Below, in pieces: positions 920-56,469 of a DNA stretch of 64,000 nucleotides (position 1 is the stretch's first letter; the number at the start of each line of letters is the position of its first letter). The notes under the pieces are model-generated. The model saw only the letters and a program-made list of their open reading frames with translations. It had not been told where the DNA came from and did no database searches. The translations under genes and the position numbers were made by a program. Source of the DNA: Nitrospinaceae bacterium (GTDB lineage: Bacteria; Nitrospinota; Nitrospinia; Nitrospinales; Nitrospinaceae); the NCBI GenBank assembly GCA_965223665.1, contig OZ245011.1, positions 3,840,001 to 3,904,000 of the forward strand. The letters are read 5' to 3'.

Positions 920-952
920 TTGATCTGATCATCTCTTATTTGTTAAGGTGCC

Positions 953-2044: not shown

Positions 2045-2053
2045 GATTTCAAC

Positions 2054-3166: not shown

Positions 3167-3202
3167 AATTCCTTTTTACGTTTGACTTTATTTGAAAAAT
3201 AC

Positions 3203-4537: not shown

Positions 4538-4540
4538 GTT

Positions 4541-5626: not shown

Positions 5627-5631
5627 GAGTT

Positions 5632-8578: not shown

Positions 8579-8587
8579 AAAACTTGC

Positions 8588-10333
8588 TCATGCCCTGTTT
8601 GCAACAATTACACGGTCATTACTGGAGGGTATATTAAGATACCGAAGTGTTTTTCGAGCAATTTCACGAAAGACAGGAGCCGCCACTTCACCCCCCCAAT
8701 GTGATTTTTGTGGTTCGTCGATCATGACTAATATGGCCAACTTAGGTTTATTAGCAGGGACAAAACCAATAAATGAAGCGACATATGCTGTTTTGGAATA
8801 ACCTTTTGTAGCGGGATCTATTTTCTGGGCAGTTCCGGTTTTACCGGCAACCTTAAATCCTTTAATAGATGCTTTTTTTCCGGTTCCTTCAGAAACAACG
8901 GTTTGTAAAACATCAATCATTTGTTGGCTCGTTTCTTCAGATAAGACTCGATAAATTTTTTCAAATGATTTGCTTTTCCAGGGTTTGCCGGATTTTAAAA
9001 TAGTTTTTGTGACATAAGGGCGAACCAAATATCCTCCATTAGCAATGGTTGAAATTGCTGCGATCATTTGCAATGGAGTGGTTGAGATCTCCTGGCCAAA
9101 GGAAACAGAGGCTAACGAAAGTTTAGACCATTTTTTTAATGGCCTTAATGTCCCGGTGGCCTCACCCGGTAAATCAATTCCAAGTTTTTTTCCAAAACCA
9201 AATTTAGTTAGATAGGAGTAAAAGTTTTTCTCCCCTAATTCCTGAGCAATTTTAATTGCGCCGATATTGCTTGACTTTGCGATTATATTTTTTAATGTAA
9301 GCCAACCAAATTTATGGTTCGCCGCTTCTCCAATTACGGTATTGCCCAAACGATATTGGCCGTTTTCACAAAAGAAAATATCGTTTGACTTGGCCAGGCC
9401 TTCCTCCAGGGCTGCTGAAGCTAAAATTGGTTTAAATATAGAACCAGGTTCAAAGGCCCCGGAGACAATATCATTTCTCCAATTGTCCTTGGGATAGGCA
9501 GAATAGTGATTAGGGTTGAACTCAGGCAAGGTCGCCATTGCCAATAGTTCCCCATTGTTAGGATTCATGACAACAGCCAATCCTTTCTTGGCTCCATAAA
9601 GTTTCACTTGGTTTTTTAATTCCTGCTCTGCAATGAACTGAATAACCTCATCGATAGTCAAAACAATATCTTTGTTTTGAGAATAAAGGGGGTCTCCCCA
9701 TCCCCGTTTGGGGAGATAGCGACCTCTAGCGTCCTTTTCCACCAATTGACGAATAATCGTTCCTTTTAATAGAGCGTGTTGATAATGCTCCACTCCAGCG
9801 AGTCCCTGGTTGTCAAGACCGACGAAACCAAGAGTACTGGCTGCTAATTGGCGTTTAGGATAAAAGCGCTTGCTTTCCTTAAAAAAGCCAACCCCTTCCA
9901 GTCCCAACTGCTTCAGTTTTTCCGTACGGTTCAAATCGCACTTTCGTTGAATCCATACAAACTGTTTATTGGATTTGATTTTTTTGGAAATATACTTTGG
10001 CTTCAAATTTAACGTTGAGGATAAAACTTGGATGGTATTTCGCCGATCTAAAATATCTTTTGGATTTACGAAAACCGATTCAACGTCAATATTAATGGCA
10101 AGAGGATTGCCATTTCGATCAAATATGTTTCCTCTTCCCGTTGCGATTTCAACAGTTTTTTTGTACTGTTTTTCCGACTGAGCTAAATATTCCTCGTGTT
10201 TGTAAATTTGTAGATAAATTAACCTACCAATTAAAATGCTTCCGTAACCCAAAAAAAGCAAAGAGACTAAAACCATTCGTACTTTAAGATTGGTTTTAGA
10301 AGATGAAATAGCTTTTTTGCCTTTTTTTCTCAT
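8588..10333 (-). CDS. ftsI: Class B penicillin-binding protein FtsI/PBP3
   Basis: N-terminal TM; RGNIFDRNG; transpeptidase motifs SIFK, SSN and KTG; dcw position. Confidence 0.94.
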   Translation of the reverse strand: MRKKGKKAISSSKTNLKVRMVLVSLLFLGYGSILIGRLIYLQIYKHEEYLAQSEKQYKKTVEIATGRGNIFDRNGNPLAINIDVESVFVNPKDILDRRNTIQVLSSTLNLKPKYISKKIKSNKQFVWIQRKCDLNRTEKLKQLGLEGVGFFKESKRFYPKRQLAASTLGFVGLDNQGLAGVEHYQHALLKGTIIRQLVEKDARGRYLPKRGWGDPLYSQNKDIVLTIDEVIQFIAEQELKNQVKLYGAKKGLAVVMNPNNGELLAMATLPEFNPNHYSAYPKDNWRNDIVSGAFEPGSIFKPILASAALEEGLAKSNDIFFCENGQYRLGNTVIGEAANHKFGWLTLKNIIAKSSNIGAIKIAQELGEKNFYSYLTKFGFGKKLGIDLPGEATGTLRPLKKWSKLSLASVSFGQEISTTPLQMIAAISTIANGGYLVRPYVTKTILKSGKPWKSKSFEKIYRVLSEETSQQMIDVLQTVVSEGTGKKASIKGFKVAGKTGTAQKIDPATKGYSKTAYVASFIGFVPANKPKLAILVMIDEPQKSHWGGEVAAPVFREIARKTLRYLNIPSSNDRVIVANRA

Positions 10334-10341
10334 AGGTAAGT

Positions 10342-10659
10342 TTACTTAATAAAAATTGTTACGGTTTGACCAGGTAAAGGTTCTTGCATTTTCAACCGCT
10401 TTTTTGCGATGTATTGAACTCTATCTAAAGTCTGCAAACTATCTCTTTCTAACTTAAGTAAGGTGTTTTCATGTAACAATTCTTGATTTAAATGCTTTTG
10501 CTCCTCGAATTCGTAAGCGAGGTTGGTGAATTCCACGTTGGGCCATAAATAAGCCAACGCGCTCATTAAGAAAAGACCTGAGGCAATTACCACCAATCGA
10601 AACTCACGTTTCGTTACATGAAAAAAACTTTGTATAGAAAAAAATAGACGATTACTCAT
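10342..10659 (-). CDS. ftsL: Cell division protein FtsL (start 10659 or 10677)
   Basis: Small bitopic protein with a coiled coil and an IAKKRLKM tail, between rsmH and ftsI. Confidence 0.85.
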   Translation of the reverse strand: MSNRLFFSIQSFFHVTKREFRLVVIASGLFLMSALAYLWPNVEFTNLAYEFEEQKHLNQELLHENTLLKLERDSLQTLDRVQYIAKKRLKMQEPLPGQTVTIFIK

Positions 10660-11590
10660 AAATCCTCTCAGCAACACGAAGCTTTGCGGAAGAAGCTCTT
10701 GGATTGCGTCTGATTTCTTCGGGCGAGGGAGCTATAGCTTTACGTGTAATAATTTTTAGACGGGGTTTTTTGCCGCAAACGCATTGTGGAATTTTTGGAG
10801 GACAAATACATCCTTTTTGTTCTGTCTGGAAGAAATGTTTAACTTTGCGGCTTTCTAATGAATGAAATGAAATAACTGCAATTCTTCCACCTTCATTCAA
10901 CAGTTCTACTGAATTTTGTAGACCCTTTTCTATATGGTATAATTCATTATTAACCGCAATGCGCAGAGCCTGGAAGGACTTTGTAGCAGGATTTTTCCTG
11001 GTTGGACGCGGGCGTGAGACCGCGCTGGAGAGGATTTTGGACAAGGCTTGGGTTGTTGCGATGGGGCCTTGACTCTGCGCATTGCGGATAAATCGTACAA
11101 TTTTTTTTGACTGCCTTTCTTCGCCATATTCTTTAAAAATTCTTTCCAATTCTTCATCGGGCAATGTCTCCAACAAATCCGACGCTTTGACCTTTTGATT
11201 TTGGTCCATTCTCATATCAATAGGGCCTTCCTTTGAGAATGAAAAACCGCGTTTAGAAGTTTCTAATTGATAAGACGAAACGCCTAAATCTAAAAGAAAC
11301 CCATCCATTCGATTAATTTGTTGGGCCTCCAGAATTTGTTTAATTTCGCTGAAGTTGCCCTTAATAATAGTAACTCGTTTGCCAAAGGGTGCTAACCGCT
11401 TGCGAGCTCTAGATAATGCCTCGCTATCCCGGTCAATCCCAATGACCCTGCATTGAGGGTCTGCCTCCTGTAAAATTGCTTCGGTTAATCCGCCGTCCCC
11501 TAAGGTTCCATCCACAATCAATTTCTTGTTTTGTGGGTCTAAATAATGGAGAACTTCCTTTGTTAATACTGGAACATGGTAATTCTCCAT
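10652..11590 (-). CDS. rsmH: 16S rRNA C1402 N4-methyltransferase
   Basis: HVPVL, DGTLGDGG, DLGVSSYQL, FQALRIAVN, ISFHSLE and NPRASSAKLR. Confidence 0.97.
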   Translation of the reverse strand: MENYHVPVLTKEVLHYLDPQNKKLIVDGTLGDGGLTEAILQEADPQCRVIGIDRDSEALSRARKRLAPFGKRVTIIKGNFSEIKQILEAQQINRMDGFLLDLGVSSYQLETSKRGFSFSKEGPIDMRMDQNQKVKASDLLETLPDEELERIFKEYGEERQSKKIVRFIRNAQSQGPIATTQALSKILSSAVSRPRPTRKNPATKSFQALRIAVNNELYHIEKGLQNSVELLNEGGRIAVISFHSLESRKVKHFFQTEQKGCICPPKIPQCVCGKKPRLKIITRKAIAPSPEEIRRNPRASSAKLRVAERIYE

Positions 11591-43500: not shown

Positions 43501-43953
43501 ATGTCCTATGATAATGAGCTTTACCAACAGGTGATTCTGGATCATAACAAAAAGCCGAAAAATTTCCGTGATATGGAAGATGCTACTCATTCCTGTCATG
43601 GATTCAATCCGCTTTGTGGAGATGATTATACTGTTTACCTTAAGGTCGATGGCCAAAACATTATTCAGGATATTAGTTTTATGGGATCAGGATGCGCTAT
43701 ATCTAAGGCAAGTTCTTCATTAATGACCAGTTTTTTAAAAGGAAAACCTATTGAGGATGCTAAAGTTGTCTATGAAGAGTTTCACAAGATGGTATTAGGT
43801 GAATTTGATCCTGAAAAAGAAGAGAATCATTTGGGAAAACTAAAATTGTTTATGGGGATACGAGAATTCCCCTCACGAATTAAGTGCGCTAGTTTGTCAT
43901 GGCATTCTATGGTTGGCGCTTTAAATAAAGACGATAAGGTTACAACGGAATAA
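43501..43953 (+). CDS. sufU: SufU-type sulfur transfer protein
   Basis: LYQQVILDH, NPLCGD, GCAIS and RIKCA; follows sufS. Confidence 0.92.
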   Translation: MSYDNELYQQVILDHNKKPKNFRDMEDATHSCHGFNPLCGDDYTVYLKVDGQNIIQDISFMGSGCAISKASSSLMTSFLKGKPIEDAKVVYEEFHKMVLGEFDPEKEENHLGKLKLFMGIREFPSRIKCASLSWHSMVGALNKDDKVTTE

Positions 43954-43998
43954 TTTGAAGATTTAACTTCTAAATATCACCCCATCAAAAGGAGGTGG

Positions 43999-45069
43999 GT
44001 GATTAACACACCGAACGCACAATCCTTGTTAGATCAATCCACCCGGTCGGGTGATTTGTCCATCCCTTTAAAAAATAAATCACTCATTTGCACAGCTTGT
44101 GGGCATCGTTGTGAATTAAAGCCTGGAAAGCGAGGGGTTTGTAAAGTCCGGTTTAATGAAGAGGGTGTTTTAAGAGTTCCTTTTCAATATACAGCAGGAT
44201 TGCAGAATGATCCAATCGAGAAGAAACCCTTTTTTCATGTTTTACCAGGAAGTGATTCGCTAAGTTTTGGAATGTTGGGTTGTGACTTTAAATGTGGGTA
44301 TTGTCAAAACTGGTTTACCTCGCAAACTTTAAGCGATGAAGCTTCAACAGTAAGCTTCAACGCAATTACCTCCAATGAAATTTGTGACGTAGCGGAAAAG
44401 CATAAAGTAAAGACAATAATTTCTACTTATAATGAACCATTAATTACAAGTGAATGGGCTGTAGAGGTATTTAGAGAAGCGCGAACACGCAATTTTCTAA
44501 CCGGCTACGTTTCTAACGGTCACGGAACGCCCGAAGTGCTTGAATATATAAAACCTTGGTTAGATATAATTAAAATCGATTTAAAATGTTTTGATAAAAA
44601 TAAATATAGGAAATTGGGTGGGGGGTTGGATCAAGTATTGGAAACTATTCATTCGGTAAAAAGTATGGGATTTTGGTTGGAAATTGTTACCTTAGTGATT
44701 CCTGAATATAATGACTCAAACTCAGAATTAACCAAAATAGCGAAATTTATTGCTTCAATTTCTCCTGACATCCCTTGGCATGTAACCGGTTTTAATCCTC
44801 AATATAAAATGTTGGATAAAAGAAGTACCGAAATTAACCATTTAGTGAGGGCAAGGGATATCGGTATGAGTTTCGGGCTTCATTATGTTTATGCCGGAAA
44901 TAGGCCGGGCATGATTAAGAATGCAGAGGATACATTTTGTCCTAGTTGTAAGAGAACTTTAATTAAGCGTTTCGGATTTCGCGTTTTGAAAAACTATTTA
45001 ATCAATGGAAGATGTCCGCATTGTTTTTACTCCATTCCGGGGGTTTGGAGTAAAAATTTTCTAAAATAA
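43999..45069 (+). CDS. AmmeMemoRadiSam-system radical SAM enzyme
   Basis: N-terminal CTACGHRC..C, DPIEKKPFFH, CDFKCGYC, TYNEP and C-terminal CPSC..CPHC. Confidence 0.9.
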   Translation: MINTPNAQSLLDQSTRSGDLSIPLKNKSLICTACGHRCELKPGKRGVCKVRFNEEGVLRVPFQYTAGLQNDPIEKKPFFHVLPGSDSLSFGMLGCDFKCGYCQNWFTSQTLSDEASTVSFNAITSNEICDVAEKHKVKTIISTYNEPLITSEWAVEVFREARTRNFLTGYVSNGHGTPEVLEYIKPWLDIIKIDLKCFDKNKYRKLGGGLDQVLETIHSVKSMGFWLEIVTLVIPEYNDSNSELTKIAKFIASISPDIPWHVTGFNPQYKMLDKRSTEINHLVRARDIGMSFGLHYVYAGNRPGMIKNAEDTFCPSCKRTLIKRFGFRVLKNYLINGRCPHCFYSIPGVWSKNFLK

Positions 45070-45426
45070 GAGAGAAATGAAAAGTGGTTCTAATTCTTAA
45101 CCTTCAAAAAATGTTTTGTAATAATAAGATTCCTGTTTCGCCTCTTCAAGATACTCGCTTTGTAAAACCAAATTTTATAATCAATTAGAAAATTTTGGTT
45201 TCCTCGGTTTGATTTTCTGTTTAGTTGTGTCGCTAAAAATGTTAAGGTTGTTTCCCCGCCTTTTGCAGGCCTTATAAGGCTATTCAAAATTTTGGGAACT
45301 TATTCGAGGTTTTCTGTTTTGAGGCTGTATAAAAAATGGATGGGCGGGTTTCTTCATTTTATTGATTGAGTCCGATAGAAAATTTCTGATAAAAAAATGA
45401 TTTTGATTGAAAATAAAATAAGGAGA

Positions 45427-47145
45427 ATGGGAAGTTTTAAAAGTTTGATTTTTGCTTGTGTTTTAATTTGGGTTTCATCAAATGCATTTGGACAAACTAA
45501 TGTTCCGCCAGCTGGGGAATCGGGCGTAATTGAAAAATCCCTGCGGTCTTCTCGTCCACAGTTTCAATCACCTGAGAAAGATATATCAAATATAATAAAA
45601 AATGATAGCCGAAAGGTTGAGGATCCTGGAGCCGGACCGCGTTTTTTTGTTGAAAAAATTCAGGTTCAAGGAAATACTCTGTTTTCCGATCAAGAATTAG
45701 CTCCTTTTGTAAACTTAGGTGGCACGGTAGAAGTTACTTTAGGAGTTCTGACCTTAATTGCCAATGAAATTACCGCCTTTTATGTTTCCAAAGGCTATAT
45801 TTTATCTTTTGCCTATATTCCTCCTCAGGAAATTGCTAATGGGGTGGTCCTTGTCCAAATTGTAGAATCAAGGATTGGCAAAATAGAGGTGCAAGGGAAT
45901 GAAAGATATACTGACGGCGAGATTTTGTCTTGGATGGAACAAGTACAAAAAGAGCGGGTTTTAAGTGAGCAAACTCTAGAACGAGCTTTACTTGATTTGA
46001 ATGATATATATGGGCTAAAAGTGCAATCCATTTTAAAACCCGGTGATAAAACTGGAACTTCCGATTTAGTTTTAAAAATTCAAGAATCAAAATCCTTTAA
46101 ATTTGAATTTGATGTAGATAACTTTGGTTCTCGATTTACAGGTCGACATCGATTTGGTTTAACTGCTTCTATTGACAATTTAGGATTGTTTGGAGACTCA
46201 TTCTCTATTCGGGGTTTAAAGTCCGAAAACAATCAAAATTATATTAATGCTAATTATTCTGTTCCAGTTTCCAATTATGGAACGCGGGCCAACTTTTCCT
46301 TTATATATTCTGACTTTGTATTAGGAGATTCGTTGAGCATTTTAAATGCTGAAGGGACATCAAATCTCATTTTGTTTGATATTACCCAAAAGATACATCG
46401 TTCTCGAAGATCCGAATTGTACATTTCAATCGGAGGTGAAATTAGAAACTTTAAAAATAGCCAAGCTAATAATCAAACCAGCAACGATAAGTTAAGAGAT
46501 ATATTTTTGGGATTAGGAGGAAATTGGTCTGATGGATTGTTTGGAAGGACTTTTTATGATATTCGACTTCAATGGGGTTTTACTGAAGGAAATATTGCGG
46601 ACCCACTTAACTCTCGATTTCATGGCAGAGGAGATGTTTTGATTTCCAGCTTTTCTTTTCAAAGATTTCAATCCATAAAAATTTTTAATTCATACTTTGT
46701 GATTAGGGGGAAGGGACAAATTGTTGCCAATCGGGTATTATCACCGGATCAGTTTGCTATTGGTGGTTTTGGAACAGTGCGTGGTTTTCCCCTGGCTGAA
46801 AATGCTGGTGACAATGGATTTACTTTTTCCTGGGAGTATGTATTGCCTTTTCCTGTAAAAATTCCTTTAACTTCTAAACCAGGTTTAAAAAGTTTGAATG
46901 AAATACTTTCGTTGTTTGGCTTTATTGATCACGGTCAGATTTTTGTCAGAAATAAACAGCCTGGAGAAATTAATAGTGAATTAACCGGCGCGGGCGGAGG
47001 CATTCGCGTCAATATTCCGAAAATAGATTGGCTTTTTCCTCAGATTAGTATAACCGCCTCCTATGGCTTTCCTGTTTTTACAAATAATGACCCCTCCGAT
47101 GGTTCTTCATCTACATTTTATTTTGCTGGTTTGATTTCCTTTTAA
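45427..47145 (+). CDS. ShlB/FhaC/HecB (TpsB) two-partner secretion outer-membrane transporter
   Basis: Signal peptide, POTRA-like regions (Y..KGY..A.IPPQEI..G), DNFGS..TG, VRGF motif and terminal Phe. AGGAG RBS precedes ATG 45427. Confidence 0.93.
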   Translation: MGSFKSLIFACVLIWVSSNAFGQTNVPPAGESGVIEKSLRSSRPQFQSPEKDISNIIKNDSRKVEDPGAGPRFFVEKIQVQGNTLFSDQELAPFVNLGGTVEVTLGVLTLIANEITAFYVSKGYILSFAYIPPQEIANGVVLVQIVESRIGKIEVQGNERYTDGEILSWMEQVQKERVLSEQTLERALLDLNDIYGLKVQSILKPGDKTGTSDLVLKIQESKSFKFEFDVDNFGSRFTGRHRFGLTASIDNLGLFGDSFSIRGLKSENNQNYINANYSVPVSNYGTRANFSFIYSDFVLGDSLSILNAEGTSNLILFDITQKIHRSRRSELYISIGGEIRNFKNSQANNQTSNDKLRDIFLGLGGNWSDGLFGRTFYDIRLQWGFTEGNIADPLNSRFHGRGDVLISSFSFQRFQSIKIFNSYFVIRGKGQIVANRVLSPDQFAIGGFGTVRGFPLAENAGDNGFTFSWEYVLPFPVKIPLTSKPGLKSLNEILSLFGFIDHGQIFVRNKQPGEINSELTGAGGGIRVNIPKIDWLFPQISITASYGFPVFTNNDPSDGSSSTFYFAGLISF

Positions 47146-47342
47146 TTTCCCTGAATTCAATATTTTTTACGCCTTGGATAAAATATCGGTGATTATGAGA
47201 ATTTTTCATAATTTGATCTTAAATCCCAAAAAACAAACCCTAATGGGGTATTTATTCTGATAAATGGTAAAATTGCTTTACTTTTGTTGGGTAAGTTCAT
47301 AATATCTACAAGGTAAATCTAATTTATGGATAAAGGCTATCC

Positions 47343-48167
47343 ATGCAAAATCTTTCCATTATAAGAAAATACCTAATCTTTTTAGCCTCAATCTCAGTTT
47401 ATATTTTTTTTGGGGGTTTGAGCCTAGCCCATTCTGAAGAAAAATCCATCGGCAAAATAATAGCTATTATTGGCCAAGCAGAGTTTATTAATGAAACAGC
47501 AGAAGTAACTTCTGAACTTAAAGGTGGTTCGATAAAAAAGGTTTCCTCTCCGATTTGGCAGAAAGTGATTCCCCATCAAAAGGTTTTTCCTCAAGATGTA
47601 TTTAGAACCTCAAAGAAAAGTCGGCTGAGAATTCTTTTTAACGATAGTAGTTTAATGGCATTGGGACCTAGTACAAAGATGAAAGTCTCTTCATATATTG
47701 TTAATTCAGAAAAAAAGTTTCGAAAAGGTGTAATGGATTTAGCGCATGGGCTTTCAATGTATATTGTTAATAAACAGCATAAAAGTGAGGGCTCCTCTTT
47801 CAAAATGGTATCACCCACTGCAAATATTACTGCAAGAGGAACTCAAGGGTATTTAAGTGTGTCTAAACAAAAGACTCTAGTGGCAAATTTAGCGGGAGCT
47901 GTTTCTGCAGAAAATTCTGATCCAGCTGTTACTGGGGAAGTTTTAGTCGGAATCAAGGAAAGCTCTATAGTTGAGAAAGGCAAACCTCCTACAGAACCAC
48001 AGCCTATTCGTAATGTAGAATTACAGTTTCTACAGCAAACGGTTATGGGTTGGCCTAATCCAAAAATAGATGAAGAATCAAATGGGGATTCAACTTTAGA
48101 GGAAGCTTTTGAGGAAGATTTTGAGCCGTTTGATGATATTGATAGCAATTCTTGTAAATCAGGATGA
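47343..48167 (+). CDS. Exported FecR-domain protein
   Basis: Signal/TM, then D.FRT..SRL.I.F.DSS..LG..T and SPTANITARGT; acidic tail ending SNSCKSG. Confidence 0.85.
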   Translation: MQNLSIIRKYLIFLASISVYIFFGGLSLAHSEEKSIGKIIAIIGQAEFINETAEVTSELKGGSIKKVSSPIWQKVIPHQKVFPQDVFRTSKKSRLRILFNDSSLMALGPSTKMKVSSYIVNSEKKFRKGVMDLAHGLSMYIVNKQHKSEGSSFKMVSPTANITARGTQGYLSVSKQKTLVANLAGAVSAENSDPAVTGEVLVGIKESSIVEKGKPPTEPQPIRNVELQFLQQTVMGWPNPKIDEESNGDSTLEEAFEEDFEPFDDIDSNSCKSG

Positions 48168-48171
48168 ACAT

Positions 48172-50439
48172 ATGCGTAAGGGGAGAAAAGTGAAACTTAT
48201 TCCATTCAAAATATCTAACTTTATTCTTTTGGGATGGTTATACTGCGTTTTTTCAATTTTCCCTTCTAAAATTTATGCGCTTCCTTCGGGGGGAAATATT
48301 ATCCAGGGAGAAGGTTCTATTCGACTACCCTCCGCCCAAGAATTAAATGTTCAACAAAATTCGCAAAAGTTAATTGCCGAATGGAACTCTTTTGGAATTG
48401 GGGCTACAGAATCAGTACGGTTTATTCAGCCCAATGCAAATTCAGTTGCCTTAAATAGAGTGATAGGTAGTGACCCGAGCCAAATTTTAGGAAAGTTATC
48501 AGCAAATGGACAAGTATTTTTGGTCAATCCTTCAGGAGTCTATTTTGGGCCAAACTCTATTGTGGATGCCCACGGATTTATTGGATCTACTTTAGATCTT
48601 AGCAATCAGGATTTTTTCGATGGTAATTATACCTTTATCAAAAATCCCTCAAAACCTCTGGCTTCTATTATTAACCAAGGGGAAATTAAAGCAGGGGCAT
48701 ATGCCGGCCTTGTAGCTCCTGCAATTTCAAATGGGGGAAAAATTATTGTAGCTGATCTGGGAACAGTGGCTTTAGGGGCGGGAGAAGCAGCTGTTTTAGA
48801 TTTCAATGGAGATGGCTTAATAAACTTTACCATCACCCAACCAGTATTAGGAGAAGTTCCAGATAATAATGGAATTTTATTACCAAATAGGATCTTAAAC
48901 TCCGGTCAAATTCAGGCAAATGGAGGACAAGTTCTTTTAATGGCTAAGGAAGCTGGAAATATAGTACGTGATGTTGTTAATCATTCAGGAATAATTGAGG
49001 TCAACTCAGTTGTTAAAAAAAATGGACGGATTGTTCTATCAGGTGGAGAAAAGGGTATTGTTAATGTTTCTGGAACCCTCAACGCTATAGGAAATAATAT
49101 TGATGAAAATGGTGGCCATATTACCATTGAAGGTGAAGAAATAGGATTGTTTCAGTCAGCAATATTGAATGTTGCTGGAATGGCTAGTGGTGGAATGATT
49201 AATGTGGGTAAAGGTTCAAATGGAACTATCAATGCTCCCACAGCTAAAAATGTTTATATAGGTGAAAATGTTCAAATGTTAGCCAATTCATTATCATTTG
49301 GGGAAGGTGGAATAGTCGGCCTTTATGCCGCGGATACGTTACGCCACTATGGGCAAATTAATGCTGCGGGAGGTCCTTTGAATGGGAATGGTGGAACCGT
49401 AATTAATTCTGGAAAGCGTTCTATCGAGATCAAAAATGCTCCCGATATTAGTACAAATAATGGTTCGGGCGGGGATTGGTTAGTAATTGATGCAGATGTA
49501 ATTGAAATTTTACCAGGAAAAGGAGTATTTGATTCTGGTGGCGACCCCTTTGGGAATATTGAAGATGGATTGAAATTTGGGGCTGATTTAATTCTAGATG
49601 CTTTTGATGAAGGTTCAACTGTATTTATTGCAACAGGTTTTTTGGGAAAGAAAGAAAATGGTAGTCTCTTTTTGAATGCTCCAATTGATTTCACAGGCAA
49701 AGGGCCAAATTCTTTAATTTTAGGTGCCAGGAAGCATATTTTCTTAAACGAAAGTATATTTACACCTGGTAAAAACTTTAATGACCGATTAAATGTAACT
49801 TTATTAGCCAATACTGATGAGGGAATAATAGGTTCCTTCTATTTGAAGGAAGGTAAAGTTGTTGATTCGAATAATAGAGATATCTGGATAAGAGGGGCAG
49901 ATTTTCATTCGAGGGGATTATTAAAAAGTGGAACGGCACGGGTAGTTATTCGAACTCGCGGAATTAATAGAATGTCTATAGGAAATGGAACTAATAATCC
50001 TGGATTTACCATAGATAATGACGAACTGAGCAGAATTATGGCTGATAGGGTAATCTTTGATAGTTTGGGTAATATTTATATTGATGGGGTCCAACAAAAT
50101 TCAACCAATTCTATTAATCAATTATTATTCTTTTCTGGCGAAAAAATTGTAACTCAAGGTGAAAAATCTTCTTTTACCCCTGGGGTGGAATTAAATGCTC
50201 GTGATAAGATTGAAGTTAATGCTGATTTAGAAGTCCAGGGGGACTTGGTTGCCAATGTGCAAGTAGGAGGAGTTGAAGTAAGTGAAGACGTTTCTGTGGA
50301 GGCTGTCAATTCACAATTTAACGAAAATGGTTCCGGGAATTCTTTGAGCTTTGAAGAAAGAGAATTGGTGGAGCAAGGTAACTTAAGTACTTTTATAAAA
50401 GAATTTCTGGAAAATGGAAAAACTTTTAACGATTGTTAA
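48172..50439 (+). CDS. Filamentous haemagglutinin-like TpsA exoprotein (about 755 aa)
   Basis: Signal peptide, then LPSGG, W.SF.I, F.QP..VALNRV, NGQVFLVNPSG (TPS domain) and Gly/Asn/Ile beta-helix repeats. ATG 48172 follows an AGGA at the fecR stop. Confidence 0.9.
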   Translation: MRKGRKVKLIPFKISNFILLGWLYCVFSIFPSKIYALPSGGNIIQGEGSIRLPSAQELNVQQNSQKLIAEWNSFGIGATESVRFIQPNANSVALNRVIGSDPSQILGKLSANGQVFLVNPSGVYFGPNSIVDAHGFIGSTLDLSNQDFFDGNYTFIKNPSKPLASIINQGEIKAGAYAGLVAPAISNGGKIIVADLGTVALGAGEAAVLDFNGDGLINFTITQPVLGEVPDNNGILLPNRILNSGQIQANGGQVLLMAKEAGNIVRDVVNHSGIIEVNSVVKKNGRIVLSGGEKGIVNVSGTLNAIGNNIDENGGHITIEGEEIGLFQSAILNVAGMASGGMINVGKGSNGTINAPTAKNVYIGENVQMLANSLSFGEGGIVGLYAADTLRHYGQINAAGGPLNGNGGTVINSGKRSIEIKNAPDISTNNGSGGDWLVIDADVIEILPGKGVFDSGGDPFGNIEDGLKFGADLILDAFDEGSTVFIATGFLGKKENGSLFLNAPIDFTGKGPNSLILGARKHIFLNESIFTPGKNFNDRLNVTLLANTDEGIIGSFYLKEGKVVDSNNRDIWIRGADFHSRGLLKSGTARVVIRTRGINRMSIGNGTNNPGFTIDNDELSRIMADRVIFDSLGNIYIDGVQQNSTNSINQLLFFSGEKIVTQGEKSSFTPGVELNARDKIEVNADLEVQGDLVANVQVGGVEVSEDVSVEAVNSQFNENGSGNSLSFEERELVEQGNLSTFIKEFLENGKTFNDC

Positions 50440-50506
50440 AATATCTTTTATAAAATTTTAATGGTAAATGATTGAATCCTTCCTATTTTTAAAGTATTAA
50501 TTCTAA

Positions 50507-52735
50507 ATGAAAAAGTGGTGGTTGAATCCCTTAACAATTTCTGTATTCATCACTTTAATTTCCTTATCCATTTATAGATTAGACTTTTTCTTTTTTCGCT
50601 TACTTGAGTTAAAAGCTTATGACTTTCTTATGTCCACACGCGGAGTCCAACCCGTTTCGGATAAAGTAGTCATAATTTCGATTGATGAAAAAAGTTTAAA
50701 GCAAGAAGGACGATGGCCATGGCCAAGAACGCGATTAGCAAAGCTGGTTGATCGTTTGGTAGAAAACAATGTTTCTGTAATTGGGATCGATCTTCTATTT
50801 CCTGAAAAGGATGATCATGTTTCCTATAATGAATTTCTATCCAATTTAAAAAGTCAAAAGTTTAAACGGAAGGATGCGGATGAAATAATTGATTGGGTTG
50901 TTAATTTAGAACATGCGGATCAACAGTTTGAAACATCATTAGAACAATCAAATCGTGCCGTGTTAAGTTATTTCGTATATTCTTCTAAAGAACAGGCCGG
51001 GAACCACGTATTGCCCCTAAGTACAAAAGATTTTAACTTGTTGGATTTTTCCCAGTACCCTTTGGTGAAAAAAGAAAAAAATAGTGATCCTTCAGCTTAT
51101 CTAAGATCCATTTATGCTGTTGGAATGTCTTTACCAATTCTGATGAAAGCAGCGAATAGCGCAGGTTTTGTTTCTTTCATCCCGGAGCATGATGGGGTAA
51201 TCCGAAGAATTCCACTAATTCAGATCTATAAAGATTATCTGTTTCCTCCATTTAGCCTTCAAGTAATAAAAGAAGCTACCAGTTTGAATTTATTTGCTCA
51301 TCTTCTCCCGCAAAGGGTAGGAGAAATTTCATTAGGGGGAAGGTTAATTCCCGTATCCGAGGAAGGAGATTTTTTAATAAATTTCTTTGGTCCCAATAAA
51401 ACATTTTCTCATTATTCAGCTACTGACGTTTTACAAAAAAAAATCAATCCCAATAATTTAAAAAATAAAATTGTATTAATTGGTGCGACAGCCACCGCAA
51501 TTCATGATTTGCATACCACTCCTTTTGGCCCCTTAATGCCAGGAGTCGAGGTCCATGCTAATGTTATTGAGAATATTTTATTTGATAAATTTATTCGAAG
51601 ACCTGCTTGGGTTCCTTTGTTTGATGCCGCGATGATTTTAGCACCAGGGTTATTAATTGGCGCTTTTGCCTTATCCCTAAAAGCATTTGGAACAGCCGTT
51701 CTCTTAATTTTTGGTTTAATTGGTTTTTGCACCCTGGATTTTTATCTGTTTTGGATGGAAGGACTATGGGTTAATACTGTATACCCTATTTTTTCACAGT
51801 TATTTGTTTATTTTGGGATCACTTTGTATCGCTTCGCTTTTGAAGAAAAAGAAAAGCGATTTATAAAGGAAGCTTTTAGTCAATACCTTGCGCCTACGGT
51901 AGTTGATCGTCTTGTAAAAGACCCTTCCTTATTAAAGCTAGGTGGAGAGCGGCGGATCATCTCTGCATTTTTTTCGGATATTGCTGGGTTTTCGAGTATT
52001 TCTGAAAGGATGTCCCCTGAAGATTTGGTGGATTTATTAAATTTATATTTAACTGAAATGACACAAGTATTAATGAAGCAGGAAGGTACAGTTGATAAGT
52101 TTGAGGGAGACGCCATTATTGCCTTTTTTGGAGCTCCGATTTCTTATAAGGATCATGCCAAACGGGCCTGTTGGGCCGCATTGGAAATGCAAGGTCGTTT
52201 GAATGAACTTCGAAAACGTTGGAAGGAGGAAGGTAAACCTGAGCTTTTTATGCGAATTGGAATCAATACTGGCACTGTTGTTGTAGGGAATTTAGGATCT
52301 AAAAGTCGCATGGATTATACAATGATGGGGGATTCAGTTAATCTTGCTTCTCGACTTGAAGGAGTAAACAAACAATACCATACAGAAATTATTATTAGTC
52401 AATTTACATATGAAGAAGCCAAAAACCATATACAGGTTCGGCAGTTGGACTTAATTCGTGTGATCGGTAAACAGCAGCCCATAAAAATTTATGAGTTATT
52501 AGGGAAAAAAGATGAAATGAAAGAAAGTATAAGAAAAATTCTTCCATTTTATAATGAAGGATTGCGTCATTATCAAAACCAAAATTGGGAGGAAGGAATT
52601 GAATGTTTTGAGAAAGCGCTTAATATCGATGAAGACGATGGTCCTGCATTAACCTACTTCGAAAGATGTTTAACATTTCAAATGCATCCACCACCAAAAA
52701 ATTGGGATGGTGTGTTTACTATGCGAAATAAATAG
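50507..52735 (+). CDS. CHASE2-domain class III adenylate cyclase with a C-terminal TPR-like tail
   Basis: IDEKSL..GRWPWPR, DGVIRR and GVEVHAN (CHASE2); 3 TMs; FSDIAGFS, DKFEGDA and GDSVNLASRLE. Confidence 0.93.
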   Translation: MKKWWLNPLTISVFITLISLSIYRLDFFFFRLLELKAYDFLMSTRGVQPVSDKVVIISIDEKSLKQEGRWPWPRTRLAKLVDRLVENNVSVIGIDLLFPEKDDHVSYNEFLSNLKSQKFKRKDADEIIDWVVNLEHADQQFETSLEQSNRAVLSYFVYSSKEQAGNHVLPLSTKDFNLLDFSQYPLVKKEKNSDPSAYLRSIYAVGMSLPILMKAANSAGFVSFIPEHDGVIRRIPLIQIYKDYLFPPFSLQVIKEATSLNLFAHLLPQRVGEISLGGRLIPVSEEGDFLINFFGPNKTFSHYSATDVLQKKINPNNLKNKIVLIGATATAIHDLHTTPFGPLMPGVEVHANVIENILFDKFIRRPAWVPLFDAAMILAPGLLIGAFALSLKAFGTAVLLIFGLIGFCTLDFYLFWMEGLWVNTVYPIFSQLFVYFGITLYRFAFEEKEKRFIKEAFSQYLAPTVVDRLVKDPSLLKLGGERRIISAFFSDIAGFSSISERMSPEDLVDLLNLYLTEMTQVLMKQEGTVDKFEGDAIIAFFGAPISYKDHAKRACWAALEMQGRLNELRKRWKEEGKPELFMRIGINTGTVVVGNLGSKSRMDYTMMGDSVNLASRLEGVNKQYHTEIIISQFTYEEAKNHIQVRQLDLIRVIGKQQPIKIYELLGKKDEMKESIRKILPFYNEGLRHYQNQNWEEGIECFEKALNIDEDDGPALTYFERCLTFQMHPPPKNWDGVFTMRNK

Positions 52736-52746
52736 GGAGAGATTAT

Positions 52747-53118
52747 TTGTTTTTTGGTGAATATTTGGTGCAGCAAAAAATTATAAGCGAGAAGGATTTA
52801 GCTTTTGTATTAGATACTTTAGGGCAAAATAATAAGGTTCCTTTAGGACAATTAGCCGTTCAAAACGGTTGGCTAAGCCGAAAGGAGTTATTTAAAATTC
52901 TATCTGGGCAAAGAAAAGATAAAGATGTTAAGAAGAATTTTGGGACGCTTGCAATTGAATTAGGTTTTATGAATCAAACCCAAATTGATAACTTATTAAA
53001 AATGCAAGCTCAATCTCATCAGATGCTTGGGGAATATTTGCTTTCCAAAGAACTAATTAATAGAAAGAAATTAATTCAGTCTTTGCGTGCCTATAGATTA
53101 TTTTTGAATAACTTATGA
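52747..53118 (+). CDS. Small protein built from four MshEN/T2SSE_N-like helical repeats
   Basis: Repeats FFGEYLV, PLGQLAV..G, NFGTLAI..G and MLGEYLL. TTG start with a GGGAG RBS, 11 nt after the cyclase stop. Confidence 0.65.
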   Translation: MFFGEYLVQQKIISEKDLAFVLDTLGQNNKVPLGQLAVQNGWLSRKELFKILSGQRKDKDVKKNFGTLAIELGFMNQTQIDNLLKMQAQSHQMLGEYLLSKELINRKKLIQSLRAYRLFLNNL

Positions 53119-53220
53119 TCTTCTTTTGTGGAAGTTTATTAGACATGTATAATAAGTCTCTAATTATTTTATAGCTCGGTTATTTGGCAATAACTTCATT
53201 CAATTGGAAATATATAGATT

Positions 53221-53697
53221 ATGAAAAATAAAAAACAAGTTGGGAAAGCTCTAGGGAAGGTGCCTAGTGGATTATTTATTGTAACTACTGCGTATAAAGA
53301 TCAAGAAGATGCCGTATTGGCAAGTTGGGTTAATCAAACCTCATTTAATCCTCCAGCTGTAACCATTGCTTTAGCCATTACGCGTTCAGCACGATTGCAA
53401 ATTGAAGCATCCAATGCTTTTATCATAAACATTTTGGGTAAAGAATCTAGTGCCCTTATGAAACATTTTTTCCAACCCCCCAAACCTGGAACTTCAATTT
53501 TTAAGGGGCTGAAAGTAAAGAAGGGTTTTCAGGAAATAAAGGTTTTGAATGAATGTATTGGGTATTTGGAATGTAAAGTAATCAATCAAACTATTGCAGG
53601 AGACCATGTGGTATATGTGGGAGAAATTGTTGGAGGAAATATCTTAAAAGGGGGGGATCCTTATGTGCACATTAGGGATAATGGATTTAACTATTAA
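53221..53697 (+). CDS. Flavin reductase-like (flavoredoxin-type) protein
   Basis: ALGKVPSGLFIVT, ASWVNQTSFNPP, LEC and GDHVVYVGE. Confidence 0.88.
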   Translation: MKNKKQVGKALGKVPSGLFIVTTAYKDQEDAVLASWVNQTSFNPPAVTIALAITRSARLQIEASNAFIINILGKESSALMKHFFQPPKPGTSIFKGLKVKKGFQEIKVLNECIGYLECKVINQTIAGDHVVYVGEIVGGNILKGGDPYVHIRDNGFNY

Positions 53698-53705
53698 ATA
53701 ATGAA

Positions 53706-53972
53706 TTAATTCAAGCCAAGCATTTTGGGGAGGTCTGTACGGGTAAAAACCCAATATAGCAGCAAGCTAATAAAGGCTACTCCCCCAATAGTGCTCGCTA
53801 CCATTATTGCCATTCGTTTGGGATTTGCTTGTGCAAAATCCTTCATATCCCCCGCTAAGCTTCCAATGACGTTTTCATCCGGGCGTTTACGGAAGGTTTT
53901 ATCTATAGCATCTTTACCATAGATGATTCCAAAAATTATGAGAACGATTAATATTTCAATTGCGCCTATCAT
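53706..53972 (-). CDS. Small two-TM hypothetical protein
   Basis: 88 aa; TatA-like N-terminus MIGAIEILIVLIIFGIIYG but with a second TM; overlaps the upstream stop. Confidence 0.6.
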   Translation of the reverse strand: MIGAIEILIVLIIFGIIYGKDAIDKTFRKRPDENVIGSLAGDMKDFAQANPKRMAIMVASTIGGVAFISLLLYWVFTRTDLPKMLGLN

Positions 53973-56469
53973 ATCTTAAAACATTTGCCATAGAAATTTT
54001 AGATGGAACTATATAAACTCCGGGTTCGTTGGAGGTCATTTTTTTTGGAGTATCCATTTTTGATCCACTGAGGGCGCAACGAAATCCATAATCATCCATT
54101 TGTGTTTCAGGATAACTGTTGTTTCGAAAGGAGGCGTATATGAGAGAACGCAAATCTCTCCATGACCCTCCCTTGAGTACCTTAAATTCACCCCCAATTT
54201 GTCCCTTTGGATTTATATATTGAGTTTCATCCTTATAATACTCTCGATCATACCAATCGTCTACCCATTCTTTTACATTCCCTAGTAAATGGAAAACTCC
54301 GTAAAGACTTTGACCCTTGGGCATTGTATCCACAGGTACCATGACCCGATGTTTTAAATCATCAGTCCAAGTTTGAAGATATCTAGCAAGCTGAGGGCTG
54401 ATAGGGTCCGATCCCCAAGGAAATAAGCGACCATCAGTACTTCGGGCGGCTTTTTCCCACTCTGCTTCGGTAGGTAGTCTTTTACCTTTCCAACGACAAT
54501 AAGCATCTGCTCCATACCAACTCACATTATTTATGGGATATTTATCAAAACCCTTTCTAGGTTTAAAAACCGAATTATAAATTAATATCCCATATTGGCT
54601 GTCTTTATAAAATTTTTTATGATCTTTAGTTTGATTTAAAAAATCAGAATAATCTTTTGCTGTCACTTCATATTTATCAATGTAATAGGAGTCCAAGAAA
54701 ACCTTATGTTCGGGAAATTCGTCATCCCCATGATGCTGGGCTCCCATAATAAAAAACCCTTTGGGAACAAGAACCATGTCTTTAAAAGTTAATTTTTTTT
54801 CCTCAGACTTAAGCAATGATTTAGCCCTATCAATAAATGGTCCATTAGAATCCTTATTTATATATTTTTCTAAATAAGGTTGAGCTTTGTGAAAGTTATT
54901 ACTGCGTATTAAAATCCAACCTAAATAAAAAAGAAGGTCTTTTCGTTGTGGATATTTCCCCATTGCCTCTTGTAGGTCAAATACTATAGAGTCAATGGTT
55001 TTGGAATCTTTTGAATCCAAAGACTGTTGATACCATTTTTCTGCAGTGGAATAATCTTTTTTTATCACATTGTAAAAACCAAGGTTCATATAAGCTAATG
55101 ATAAGAAGCCTTTTGATTTTGATTTTTCAAGTCCTTTTTTTGTCCAATCTATTGCGGTATCTATACTGCCCATTTGATAATGTGTCCAACCCAACTGGAT
55201 ATACATTTGTAGCATGTGGGGAAGTTTTTCAATCAAAAACTCATATTGAATAATGGCATTATCATAATCTTTCAATCGATAATGGGCCTCCGCAATTCTT
55301 TCATTTACTTCAATTCTCTGAGGAAACATTTTTTGAACCTTTTGAAATTGATTTAAGGCCAGGTCATATTGTTTCATTTCTAAATAAAGGGTACCTACAT
55401 TTAAATGAGGAACAAAGTCCTGTGGTTGTAACTCTGTCATTACTGTTGTATGTAGAAGCGCGCTAATATATTTTTTCTGATCCATAAAAAGTCGAGCAAG
55501 CATCTCGTGAACTCTAGGAAAACCGGGATTGATTTGAGCTACTTGTAAAAATGATTGAATTGCCTTTTCTTTTTTGCCGGAATCTGAATAAGCTACTCCC
55601 AGGTTGTATAAAGTAGAAAAATTATTTGGGTCTACTTTTAAAGCTTTTTCATATTGTTCAATAGACTTAACAAAATTTTTTGTGTCTGAATACATGTTCC
55701 CAAGGTTATTAAGGGTGTCTATTGAAAGGGGATTGATTTTAGCGGCAAGTTCCATGTAGAAAAATGCTTTTTCCATTTTTCTGATTTTGTAATATGTGAT
55801 TCCTACATTTGAAAAATAAGCACCCAAAGTTTGTTTTTTATTAAGGTTTTTTAAATAATATAGAGAGTTGGGAGAAGGAGAAAATCGGTTCTTGTAAAAA
55901 ATATCCTGATAGATTGTTCCTTTAGCCGTCGTTTCAATATTTATTTTTTTACCACCGGATTCGTAGCGGACGAAAAAATGATTGGGCAAAGGGACACCAT
56001 ATATAGGCAAGTTTAATTTTTCTGCGATGATTAAATATAGTAAAGATAAATTCATACAATATCCGCGTTTGTTTTGTAAGAGCCCATGAAGAAAAAGCTC
56101 TTCTGGGTTTAGGGGAAACCCTTGCGGATCTGTAAAAGGTGTGTAATCAAACCCCCATTTAAGATGGATTACTTTTTTCAGGGCATCAATAATCTCTTCC
56201 GGAGAATTTTTTTCAGTTATAGCAACTTGAGCATCTTTAACAATCTCATCAATTAATTTTTTTAAACTTTCTAAATCTATATTGGGTTGCCAATCTTGTG
56301 ATATTAAAAATAAAATCTCTGTTAGCTCGATTTTATCGTTTGAAAGTTGCAACAGGCTTTCAATGTTTTCTTTGGAAGAGTTGTTGGGGAAATTTTGTCC
56401 TGAGGAATAGGAAAACAAGGACAACCATAAGACAAACAATAACAATAAAGTTTTATTATGAAATTTCAA
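53956..56469 (-). CDS. Exported fusion: SirB1/transglutaminase-like domain, TPRs and FGE-sulfatase-fold domain
   Basis: Signal peptide; RGYC..L..LY..PNHFFVRY; TPR repeats; YIDKYEVT, RLPTEAEWEKAAR, GNVKEW, KGGSW and GFRC. Confidence 0.85.
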   Translation of the reverse strand: MKFHNKTLLLLFVLWLSLFSYSSGQNFPNNSSKENIESLLQLSNDKIELTEILFLISQDWQPNIDLESLKKLIDEIVKDAQVAITEKNSPEEIIDALKKVIHLKWGFDYTPFTDPQGFPLNPEELFLHGLLQNKRGYCMNLSLLYLIIAEKLNLPIYGVPLPNHFFVRYESGGKKINIETTAKGTIYQDIFYKNRFSPSPNSLYYLKNLNKKQTLGAYFSNVGITYYKIRKMEKAFFYMELAAKINPLSIDTLNNLGNMYSDTKNFVKSIEQYEKALKVDPNNFSTLYNLGVAYSDSGKKEKAIQSFLQVAQINPGFPRVHEMLARLFMDQKKYISALLHTTVMTELQPQDFVPHLNVGTLYLEMKQYDLALNQFQKVQKMFPQRIEVNERIAEAHYRLKDYDNAIIQYEFLIEKLPHMLQMYIQLGWTHYQMGSIDTAIDWTKKGLEKSKSKGFLSLAYMNLGFYNVIKKDYSTAEKWYQQSLDSKDSKTIDSIVFDLQEAMGKYPQRKDLLFYLGWILIRSNNFHKAQPYLEKYINKDSNGPFIDRAKSLLKSEEKKLTFKDMVLVPKGFFIMGAQHHGDDEFPEHKVFLDSYYIDKYEVTAKDYSDFLNQTKDHKKFYKDSQYGILIYNSVFKPRKGFDKYPINNVSWYGADAYCRWKGKRLPTEAEWEKAARSTDGRLFPWGSDPISPQLARYLQTWTDDLKHRVMVPVDTMPKGQSLYGVFHLLGNVKEWVDDWYDREYYKDETQYINPKGQIGGEFKVLKGGSWRDLRSLIYASFRNNSYPETQMDDYGFRCALSGSKMDTPKKMTSNEPGVYIVPSKISMANVLRYDRRN

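Follow-up and report, generated by a model that had tools for sequence, protein, structure and literature searches.

Relation of the locus to NsrA-CyaK and other FecR systems

To our knowledge, the NsrA-CyaK system of Sinorhizobium is the only worked example of sensing by a CHASE2 domain, and we know of no mechanism for the step that leads from its barrel protein to the cyclase. According to two reports, the synthesis of cyclic AMP (cAMP) by CyaD1, CyaD2 and CyaK rises in response to a plant ribosomal protein, which is sensed via the outer-membrane barrel protein NsrA (PMC13001267), and the barrel comprises residues 600-1200 of NsrA (PMC7529298). Here, we analyzed a stretch of 64,000 nucleotides from the genome of a marine-type Nitrospinaceae bacterium (assembly GCA_965223665.1; contig OZ245011.1, here called C1, positions 3840001-3904000), referred to below as the window. 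It carries a block of genes for the transporter TpsB and the secreted protein TpsA belonging to a two-partner secretion system, a FecR-fold protein, an inner-membrane cyclase with a CHASE2 sensor domain, and a small MshEN-like protein. The closest known system to this block is NsrA-CyaK, and the block is probably a new version of the cell-surface-to-cAMP signalling system known from there. Our proposal is that it represents a trans-envelope sensory module which is of the same kind as NsrA-CyaK and assembled from split parts, in which a disulfide-tethered TpsA-FecR unit would report to the CHASE2 cyclase. We put this forward tentatively, as a reading that falls a little short of an even call.

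The block resembles NsrA-CyaK in that a gene for a class III cyclase with a CHASE2 domain lies beside a gene for an outer-membrane barrel protein, with a FecR domain facing the periplasm. Unlike in NsrA, the FecR domain of the window is a separate protein of 274 amino acids (aa), the barrel is that of the exporter TpsB, and there is no TPR stretch; the window also differs by the additional secreted TpsA, the terminal cysteines of two of its proteins, and the MshEN-like gene. The FecR protein of the window matches the FecR domain of NsrA with an E-value of 4e-10. The window contains no NsrA-type fusion, which would combine FecR, TPR and barrel in one chain; the sole such fusion of the source genome (4.35 Mb; completeness, 98.6%) belongs to the paralogous locus L001, where a second CHASE2 cyclase is encoded 3.9 kb from a 1192-aa NsrA-like protein (in the following, L-numbers denote related loci and g-numbers denote genera of the same order). 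This NsrA-like protein and NsrA of Sinorhizobium meliloti are collinear (BLASTP 4e-23 for the N-terminal half and 8e-06 for the barrel), and a tblastn search with the former against plasmids retrieved pSymB records, one of them annotated as nsrA and abutting cyaK. Domain scans returned FecR and TPR for NsrA, and CHASE2 and a cyclase domain for CyaK, whose architecture is shared by the cyclase of the window. The tree of the cyclases places the NsrA-linked paralogues (L001 and L035) within the clade of those linked to two-partner secretion genes with an SH-aLRT value of 99, which shows that either front end is combined with one and the same kind of cyclase. The source genome contains exactly two CHASE2 and two FecR matches, and each FecR gene lies less than 4 kb from a CHASE2 gene, whereas two random placements within 6 kb in 4.35 Mb would be expected with a chance of about 3 in 100,000 by rough arithmetic. 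Because both FecR genes adjoin the only two CHASE2 genes of the genome, the gene arrangement is more than chance.

The interval between the cyclase and the NsrA-like gene of L001 is occupied by genes for a LuxR-type response regulator, a PAS-GAF protein, a HATPase fragment and a single-domain receiver. About 5 kb beyond the NsrA-like gene lies an 805-aa open reading frame (ORF) with two cNMP-binding domains (C1:925261-926670).

Another FecR-domain protein of S. meliloti, SMc02177, is presumably encoded next to cyaD1. It is described as a target of the CHASE2-cyclase/Clr pathway which is not needed for signal perception (PMC5498481). From Burkholderiales, an operon (BiofilmReg) for a LysM-FecR protein and a CHASE2 histidine kinase is described in a source that calls it still open what CHASE2 domains sense (PMC5192318), and a Campylobacterota cluster is described as coding for a CHASE2 cyclase, a FecR-domain outer-membrane protein, a TPR protein and a phosphodiesterase (PMC9239204). 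The window shares with the Burkholderiales and Campylobacterota clusters an exported FecR-domain protein beside a CHASE2 sensor, which is combined with different outputs there. Unlike the window, neither of these clusters has a two-partner secretion pair, neither source reports terminal cysteines, and the output in Burkholderiales is a histidine kinase. In the literature searched by text, no paper with "CHASE2" contained a word that begins with "Tps", none joined CHASE2, FecR and two-partner secretion, and the sole paper with "CHASE2" and "hemagglutinin" was unrelated. The pairing of FecR with CHASE2 is therefore already in print, whereas this literature contains no version that includes a two-partner secretion pair.

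The FecA-FecR-FecI and FoxA-FoxR-FoxI systems share the FecR fold with the window protein (PF04773 and the match to PupR). The AlphaFold model of the latter (pLDDT 80) consists of a helix at residues 3-26, a beta-rich body at 37-211, another helix at 224-235 and a disordered tail at 238-274; the N-terminal hydrophobic helix may be a cleaved signal peptide or a membrane anchor, judging from the model. A Foldseek search with this fold yielded only two matches at E ≤0.001, namely the C-terminal cell-surface signalling domain of PupR (6ovk_R; 1.1e-06, TM 0.40/0.51) and BDI_1681, the periplasmic domain of a Bacteroidales anti-sigma protein (about 1e-06), with about 150 of 213 target residues aligning in the Foldseek match. 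Unlike in FecR and FoxR, there is no cytoplasmic anti-sigma domain, and the output would be a cyclase rather than the regulated proteolysis of an anti-sigma protein. No anti-sigma domain with a membrane span was found in the 274 residues, which contain a single hydrophobic helix, are folded into strands from residue 37 onwards, and match FecR as the only Pfam family. A classical FecIRA-type system was considered and rejected, as the anti-sigma part, a sigma factor and a transducer are lacking here. FoxR is described to cleave itself at a periplasmic Gly-Thr site, G191-T192 (PMC11637429). The window protein contains the sequence R165-G166-T167, the three residues of which belong, together with C271, to the invariant columns in an alignment of 25 FecR orthologues. 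That FecR domains relay signals across the periplasm, as stated in the initial annotation of the window, holds for this protein by analogy only, because it is not a classical FecR with an anti-sigma part and a sigma factor.

Terminal cysteines and gene arrangement

The FecR-fold protein and TpsA of the window each end in a single conserved cysteine, and these paired terminal cysteines are a new feature reported here. In the FecR protein, C271 is the only cysteine, located three residues from the end in an acidic tail of very low model confidence (pLDDT <50). TpsA contains outside of its signal sequence only C755, which is its last residue. Because the only cysteine of TpsB is residue 11 in the signal sequence, leaving none in the mature protein, and the periplasmic part of the cyclase contains none either, the four envelope proteins encoded in the window contain no extracytoplasmic cysteines other than C271 and C755.

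Both cysteines are conserved in the respective families. In the 25 aligned FecR orthologues, an invariant cysteine is located one to five residues from the end, after a tail that is acidic or of low complexity and differs widely in length. Among 60 FecR orthologues with a complete end, 59 contain a cysteine within the last 8 residues, the exception being that of L139, which lies 86 nt from a contig end. The tails of all complete neighbouring TpsA proteins consist of a short amphipathic stretch, a glycine-rich turn and the terminal cysteine, and both the cysteine and a match to the tail profile were present in 32 of 37 TpsA ORFs whose 3' end is complete. In the remaining five, the ORF is interrupted or represents a second copy; an overlapping continuation ORF bears the tail with the cysteine in L136. 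As a background, a cysteine occurs in the last three residues of 130 out of 1688 ORFs of at least 200 aa from the same loci. We also searched 1.84 billion proteins with a FecR profile and counted representatives: a terminal cysteine was present in 31 of the 44 representatives at E ≤1e-30, several of the remainder being fragments, and in 11 of the next 106, more distant FecR-domain proteins (E 1e-29 to 1e-20). A word-index search with the FecR protein had returned 28 close relatives only, and the profile search reached the wider family.

The TpsA protein has the features expected for two-partner (type Vb) secretion, i.e., a TPS domain followed by a beta-helix, with a neighbouring gene for a TpsB consisting of POTRA domains and a ShlB/FhaC-type barrel; TpsB may thus be the exporter of this TpsA, judging from gene neighbourhood and domain content. 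In the structural model (pLDDT 84), residues 42-718 are rich in strands and form the beta-helix, followed by a low-confidence tail of 35 residues with two short helices. Its best Foldseek match is EtpA (1e-24), followed by the secretion domain of HMW1 (1.5e-19) and by HxuA (8e-15), which places the HMW1/HMW1B and HxuA/HxuB systems directly after EtpA. HMW1 and HxuA are examples of two-partner adhesins and binding proteins that are retained on the cell; according to a review, their C-terminus stays in the periplasm and is locked in the pore of TpsB by a disulfide-bonded loop (PMC5422565). This anchor is a cysteine pair within one chain, whereas the TpsA of the window has a single terminal cysteine, and the second one would be contributed by the FecR-fold protein. 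We infer from the two terminal cysteines that FecR and TpsA may be tethered by a disulfide through the TpsB pore. Such a bond would be a possible physical coupling of TpsA at the surface to FecR in the periplasm, and the conservation of the cysteines fits the idea of the initial annotation that TpsA serves as an antenna. Only one of the five TpsA genes in the genome, the FecR-linked one, codes for the conserved tail and terminal cysteine. The nearest TpsA paralogue (C1:2583487-2585670, 727 aa) has its own TpsB, lacks a FecR gene, and ends in a cysteine pair of the type C-x7-C, which resembles the anchor loop of HMW1 and HxuA.

A function of TpsA as a toxin or in contact-dependent inhibition was ruled out, because neither Pfam nor the model shows any domain C-terminal of the beta-helix. 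This agrees with the earlier description of a short TpsA lacking a recognizable toxin, protease or immunity partner: TPS is the sole Pfam domain, and no extra domain is seen in the model.

All five ORFs of the block were found in common orientation at the positions given in the initial annotation, with gaps of 4, 67 and 11 nt after fecR (Table 1). The fecR gene is positioned between tpsB and tpsA and is separated from the former by 197 nt. The longest ORF for TpsB begins at 45397, and that for TpsA with a TTG codon at 48109, whereas the ATG codon at 48172 results in the gap of 4 nt. The reported absence of a TonB-dependent receptor and an ECF sigma factor was likewise confirmed, as none of the 11 matches to Sigma70_r2 and none of the 9 matches to the TonB-receptor barrel (TonB_dep_Rec) in the genome lies inside the window. 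The synteny of the cluster with upstream genes for a NifU-like and a radical SAM protein (window 43501-45069) is limited to genera g1 and g2 (L002-L005, L020) and probably has no further meaning.

Table 1. Genes of the block and related features of the same genome (window positions unless a locus or C1 is given).
Feature	Position	Strand	Characteristics
TpsB	45427..47145	+	outer-membrane transporter, two POTRA domains and ShlB/FhaC-type barrel; Pfam ShlB 5.6e-26, POTRA_2 1.3e-18, POTRA 1.5e-08
FecR-fold protein, 274 aa	47343..48167	+	exported; Pfam FecR (PF04773) 4.1e-10
Short TpsA, 755 aa	48172..50439	+	Pfam TPS 2.5e-33; NCBIfam TIGR01901 2.2e-21
CHASE2-cyclase-TPR protein, 742 aa	50507..52735	+	Pfam CHASE2 4.7e-66, Guanylate_cyc 4.1e-25, TPR_2 5.5e-06 (TPR below cut-off)
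MshEN-like protein, 123 aa	52747..53118	+	no Pfam family; NCBIfam NF053729 4.3e-18
Flavin-reductase-like gene	53221..53697	+	Pfam Flavin_Reduct 7.8e-29; membership in module uncertain
Second CHASE2-cyclase-TPR protein, 742 aa	L001 8201-10429 (C1:911200-913428)		same build as the cyclase of the window
NsrA-like protein, 1192 aa	L001 14327-17905 (C1:917326-920904)		FecR, TPR repeats, TonB-receptor-like barrel; 3.9 kb from the cyclase
Paralogous TpsB/TpsA pair	C1:2583487-2587477		without FecR gene; TpsA ends in two cysteines eight residues apart

Conservation of the block and rival explanations

A search for the FecR protein covered 41 genomes from the order to which the bacterium belongs and gave matches at E ≤0.001 in 27, with none among the four genomes of genus g4. 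Twenty regions around strong FecR matches were taken, chosen from those with the longest contigs. TpsA adjoined FecR in all 20 and a full TpsB was present in 17, a CHASE2 cyclase followed TpsA in 10, and the MshEN-like gene was present as well in five. A metagenome scan with the FecR alignment provided 49 further loci, and the pooled, de-duplicated set contained 65 FecR orthologues in 62 loci. TpsA was encoded directly downstream of FecR in 45 of the 49 cases with at least 600 nt available and anywhere in the locus in 47 of these, with L144 and L161 containing none, and TpsB directly upstream in 38 of 52 cases with at least 900 nt available. Among the 20 FecR loci flanked by at least 6 kb on both sides, 13 contained a CHASE2 cyclase and 9 an MshEN-like gene.

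Besides the gene order of the window, we observed the orders cyclase-MshEN-FecR (L148, L158), cyclase-MshEN-TpsB-FecR (L155), cyclase-TpsB-FecR (L139, L153) and TpsB-FecR-cyclase-MshEN (L144), in all of which the cyclase stays linked. Four groups recur in each of the trees, which were computed for FecR, the TPS domain, TpsB and the cyclase (by quick searches for the latter two), and the two clusters of one genome, L007 and L008, split alike in all of them. Tree congruence alone is weak evidence because of shared ancestry, and the cluster duplicated en bloc (L007 and L008) is the informative part. The co-conservation of TpsB, TpsA, FecR and CHASE2, proposed as a check in the initial annotation, was thus borne out for a nearly invariant TpsB-FecR-TpsA core and for CHASE2 in several lineages, and it broke down where CHASE2 is missing or encoded apart from the core, as detailed below. 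Interchangeable outputs, also named in that check, were not seen in the version containing the two-partner secretion pair, in which every CHASE2 partner found is a cyclase.

On the cytoplasmic side, the cyclase (hydrophobic segments near residues 11-30 and 366-418) combines its inner-membrane CHASE2 sensor with a class III adenylate/guanylate cyclase domain and TPR. The MshEN-like gene is its most faithful neighbour. It lies directly 3' of the CHASE2 cyclase gene in the window and in L002-L005, L020, L025, L032, L033, L034, L038, L091, L092 and L107, including loci of Desulfurivibrionaceae (L092) and Nitrospirae (L107). A flavin-reductase-like gene follows in the window and in L002-L005, L020, L025 and L032. 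The MshEN-like protein matches NF053729, a family of MshE-related c-di-GMP-binding proteins, in two stretches with 64.8 bits against a cut-off of 38, and aligns to MshE (5htl, residues 9-61) and PilF (6f8l). It consists of four tandem MshEN-type repeats of 24 residues, i.e., two MshEN-like domains, and four repeats are also present in 23 orthologues. From its sequence and position, it is a candidate for a small cytoplasmic partner or effector of the cyclase.

We also surveyed the 80 best CHASE2-domain loci from other genomes, using contigs of one genome per species; nearly all of these CHASE2 proteins are cyclases of about 750 aa. The counts are lower bounds, since many contigs are short and the FecR profile, built from our own sequences, may miss distant domains. 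A FecR-domain ORF was present in 10 of the 80 loci. Five of these ORFs code for about 1,100-1,200 aa and span Nitrospinaceae, Spirochaetia, Desulfurivibrionaceae, Syntrophobacteraceae and Dadabacteria; the two that were scanned consist of FecR and TPR. The MshEN-like gene was found in 6 of the 80 loci, and a complete TpsB-FecR-TpsA set in one (L033), with L036 and L037 containing a 5'-truncated TpsA at the contig end. An alanine racemase fusion is encoded directly downstream of the cyclase in 35 loci, as in L040 9974-15447 (653 aa, same strand) and 34 further Syntrophales-type loci, and a D-Ala-D-Ala ligase comes next in 18, as assigned by Pfam in one representative. These neighbours hint at a cell-wall link of CHASE2 in Syntrophales-type genomes. 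In L026 (6141-11381), the gene directly upstream of a further paralogous CHASE2 cyclase (687 aa) codes for a TPR-CHAT (caspase-like) protein.

Several of these results weigh against the proposed sensory module. The low numbers of FecR ORFs and complete TpsB-FecR-TpsA sets near CHASE2 and the frequent racemase neighbours belong here; because most such loci show no FecR neighbour, close CHASE2 cyclases work without FecR. The coupling is not obligatory from the side of FecR either, as 7 of the 20 well-flanked FecR loci lack a CHASE2 gene. Genus g9 contains up to six TpsB-FecR-TpsA sets per genome, none of them with an adjoining cyclase, and an orthologous trio of cyclase, MshEN-like and flavin reductase genes is located elsewhere in these genomes, behind genes for a glyoxalase and a phosphoglucomutase. 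L144 exhibits the order TpsB-FecR-cyclase-MshEN with TpsA missing. Because related genomes are not independent, all counts overstate the support, and the loci behind them, where a source is named, all stem from Nitrospinota. The c-di-GMP motif of MshEN domains begins with RLG, the arginine included; the positions of R9 and R38 of MshE are occupied by proline and asparagine in the MshEN-like protein of the window, and no arginine is kept there in the family. A scan of positions 44800-54200 for promoters (22 vs. 33.2 in shuffled sequences) and terminators (7 vs. 8.4) was uninformative. A look for evidence of co-transcription gave no RNA run that covers the stretch; the four runs covering it, from a single study, are of DNA or unknown type. 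Finally, the genome contains matches to the DsbA family and none to the DsbB and VKOR families, so the usual route to periplasmic disulfides is not evident.

The distribution of the genes bears on the rival explanation that the locus consists of two independent units, an anchored adhesin (TpsB and TpsA with FecR as stopper or chaperone) and a separate sensor (CHASE2 cyclase, MshEN-like protein and flavin reductase), which are neighbours in some lineages. It would account for the two halves lying apart in g9, for the FecR loci without CHASE2, and for the close CHASE2 cyclases elsewhere, most of which have no FecR or TPS neighbour. It also agrees with the cyclase-MshEN pair being kept alone in L025, L032, L034, L038, L091 and L107, with L025 and L032 retaining the flavin reductase gene as well although TpsB, FecR and TpsA are absent. 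We nevertheless consider this explanation improbable, since the linkage survives in at least four gene orders and through an en-bloc duplication, both FecR genes of the genome lie beside its only two CHASE2 genes, and the pairing recurs in unrelated bacteria (PMC5192318, PMC5498481, PMC9239204).

The g9 sets have further neighbours. Genes for a class A penicillin-binding protein and a SPOR protein are located downstream of the FecR-TpsA sets. In L010, L012 and L013, two FecR-TpsA sets lie back to back across about 8.5 kb of unrelated genes (ketoacyl synthase, amine oxidases), one set per locus having a TpsB-like fragment of 105-113 aa and none a full-length TpsB. In L011 (13192-15753), the TpsA gene of a TpsB-FecR-TpsA set is immediately followed by a convergent gene for a TIR-Sel1/TPR protein (853 aa).

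According to another rival explanation, the direction is reversed: the cyclase and the MshEN-like protein would control TpsA, with CHASE2 reading an unrelated periplasmic cue and cAMP or cross-talk with cyclic di-GMP (c-di-GMP) setting the expression, export or retention of the secreted protein. Control of two-partner adhesins and toxins by second messengers is known, for example for the secretion of ExlA, which is reported to be regulated by c-di-GMP (PMC8472254), and the family name given by NCBIfam describes the MshEN-like proteins as c-di-GMP receptors. In L024 of g9 (768-11536), a row of genes codes for a cNMP-binding PAS-GGDEF-EAL protein, two FecR-domain proteins of 590 aa, a TPR protein and a CHASE2 cyclase, which suggests from gene content cross-talk of cAMP and c-di-GMP around a FecR-CHASE2 pair. 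The status of SMc02177 as a target that is dispensable for signal perception, mentioned above, points in the same direction. A reversed direction would leave unexplained why FecR is the invariant partner of TpsA and why it occurs beside CHASE2 sensors with other outputs (PMC5192318, PMC9239204). It also runs counter to NsrA, which acts upstream of CyaK (PMC13001267, PMC7529298), and the 10 cNMP_binding matches found in the genome are all located outside of the window. We therefore regard it as an unlikely explanation as well.

That the cysteines do not join FecR to TpsA at all, each of them serving instead in homodimers, metal binding or a modification, with FecR as a chaperone of secretion or as another cargo of TpsB, is very improbable: this would fit the lack of a DsbB or VKOR match, the low confidence of both tails in the FecR and TpsA models, and a weak match of the FecR protein to the Leptospira FecR-domain surface adhesin Lsa33 of NCBIfam (1.5e-07, far below the cut-off), whereas both cysteines occur together, near-invariant and at the extreme C-terminus, the FecR-less TpsA paralogue has two cysteines instead of one, and the FecR domain, modelled as compact and folded, would be unlikely to pass the TpsB pore.

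Proposed mechanism and implications

In the sensory module we propose, TpsB would export the short beta-helical TpsA and leave its flexible C-terminal tail in the periplasm. The terminal cysteine of TpsA would form a disulfide bond with the C-terminal cysteine of the FecR-fold protein, and the latter, being unable to pass the pore, would keep TpsA on the cell. The FecR-fold protein would act as a stopper in this way, taking the role of the intramolecular loop in HMW1, HxuA and the local paralogue. This stopper role alone would explain the invariant TpsB-FecR-TpsA core, including the sets without a cyclase. Where a cyclase is linked, the FecR domain may take the presumed part of the FecR domain of NsrA and contact CHASE2. 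It would report to the CHASE2 domain in the periplasm whether the surface fibre has been bound, pulled or cut off, or has not yet been exported, and the synthesis of the nucleotide, presumably cAMP, would change as a consequence. The MshEN-like protein, encoded 11 nt downstream, would act together with the cyclase on the cytoplasmic side.

The weakest steps of this model are the contact between FecR and CHASE2 and the direction of the signal. A complex prediction of FecR residues 31-240 (alignment of 25 rows) with the periplasmic CHASE2 residues 25-368 (57 sequences; 56 rows reported) resulted in scores of 0.01 and 0.20 against a mark of 0.32, obtained without controls; it speaks neither for nor against the contact. 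The reading of TpsA as an antenna, put forward in the initial annotation, gains from the conserved block, the precedent of NsrA-CyaK and the possible coupling via the terminal cysteines, and it loses from the fact that CHASE2 is not obligatory, as seen in the well-flanked FecR loci without it and in g9. In its most specific form, a two-partner system would work as a receptor, with TpsA tied by the disulfide through the TpsB pore to the FecR-fold protein and the loss, pull or occupancy of the fibre being passed on to the CHASE2 cyclase; we consider this form possible, although rather doubtful.

The module splits an NsrA-type system into small separate parts, namely the 274-aa FecR-fold protein, the short TpsA and TpsB, and the mixed disulfide between two single cysteines represents a sharp biochemical prediction. 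If the proposal is true, it would name a direct protein input of CHASE2 for the first time, and NsrA-type receptors and TpsB/FecR/TpsA sets would be interchangeable front ends of the same cyclase. Two-partner secretion would then gain a sensory role, and FecR-fold proteins would gain a role outside of sigma-factor control.

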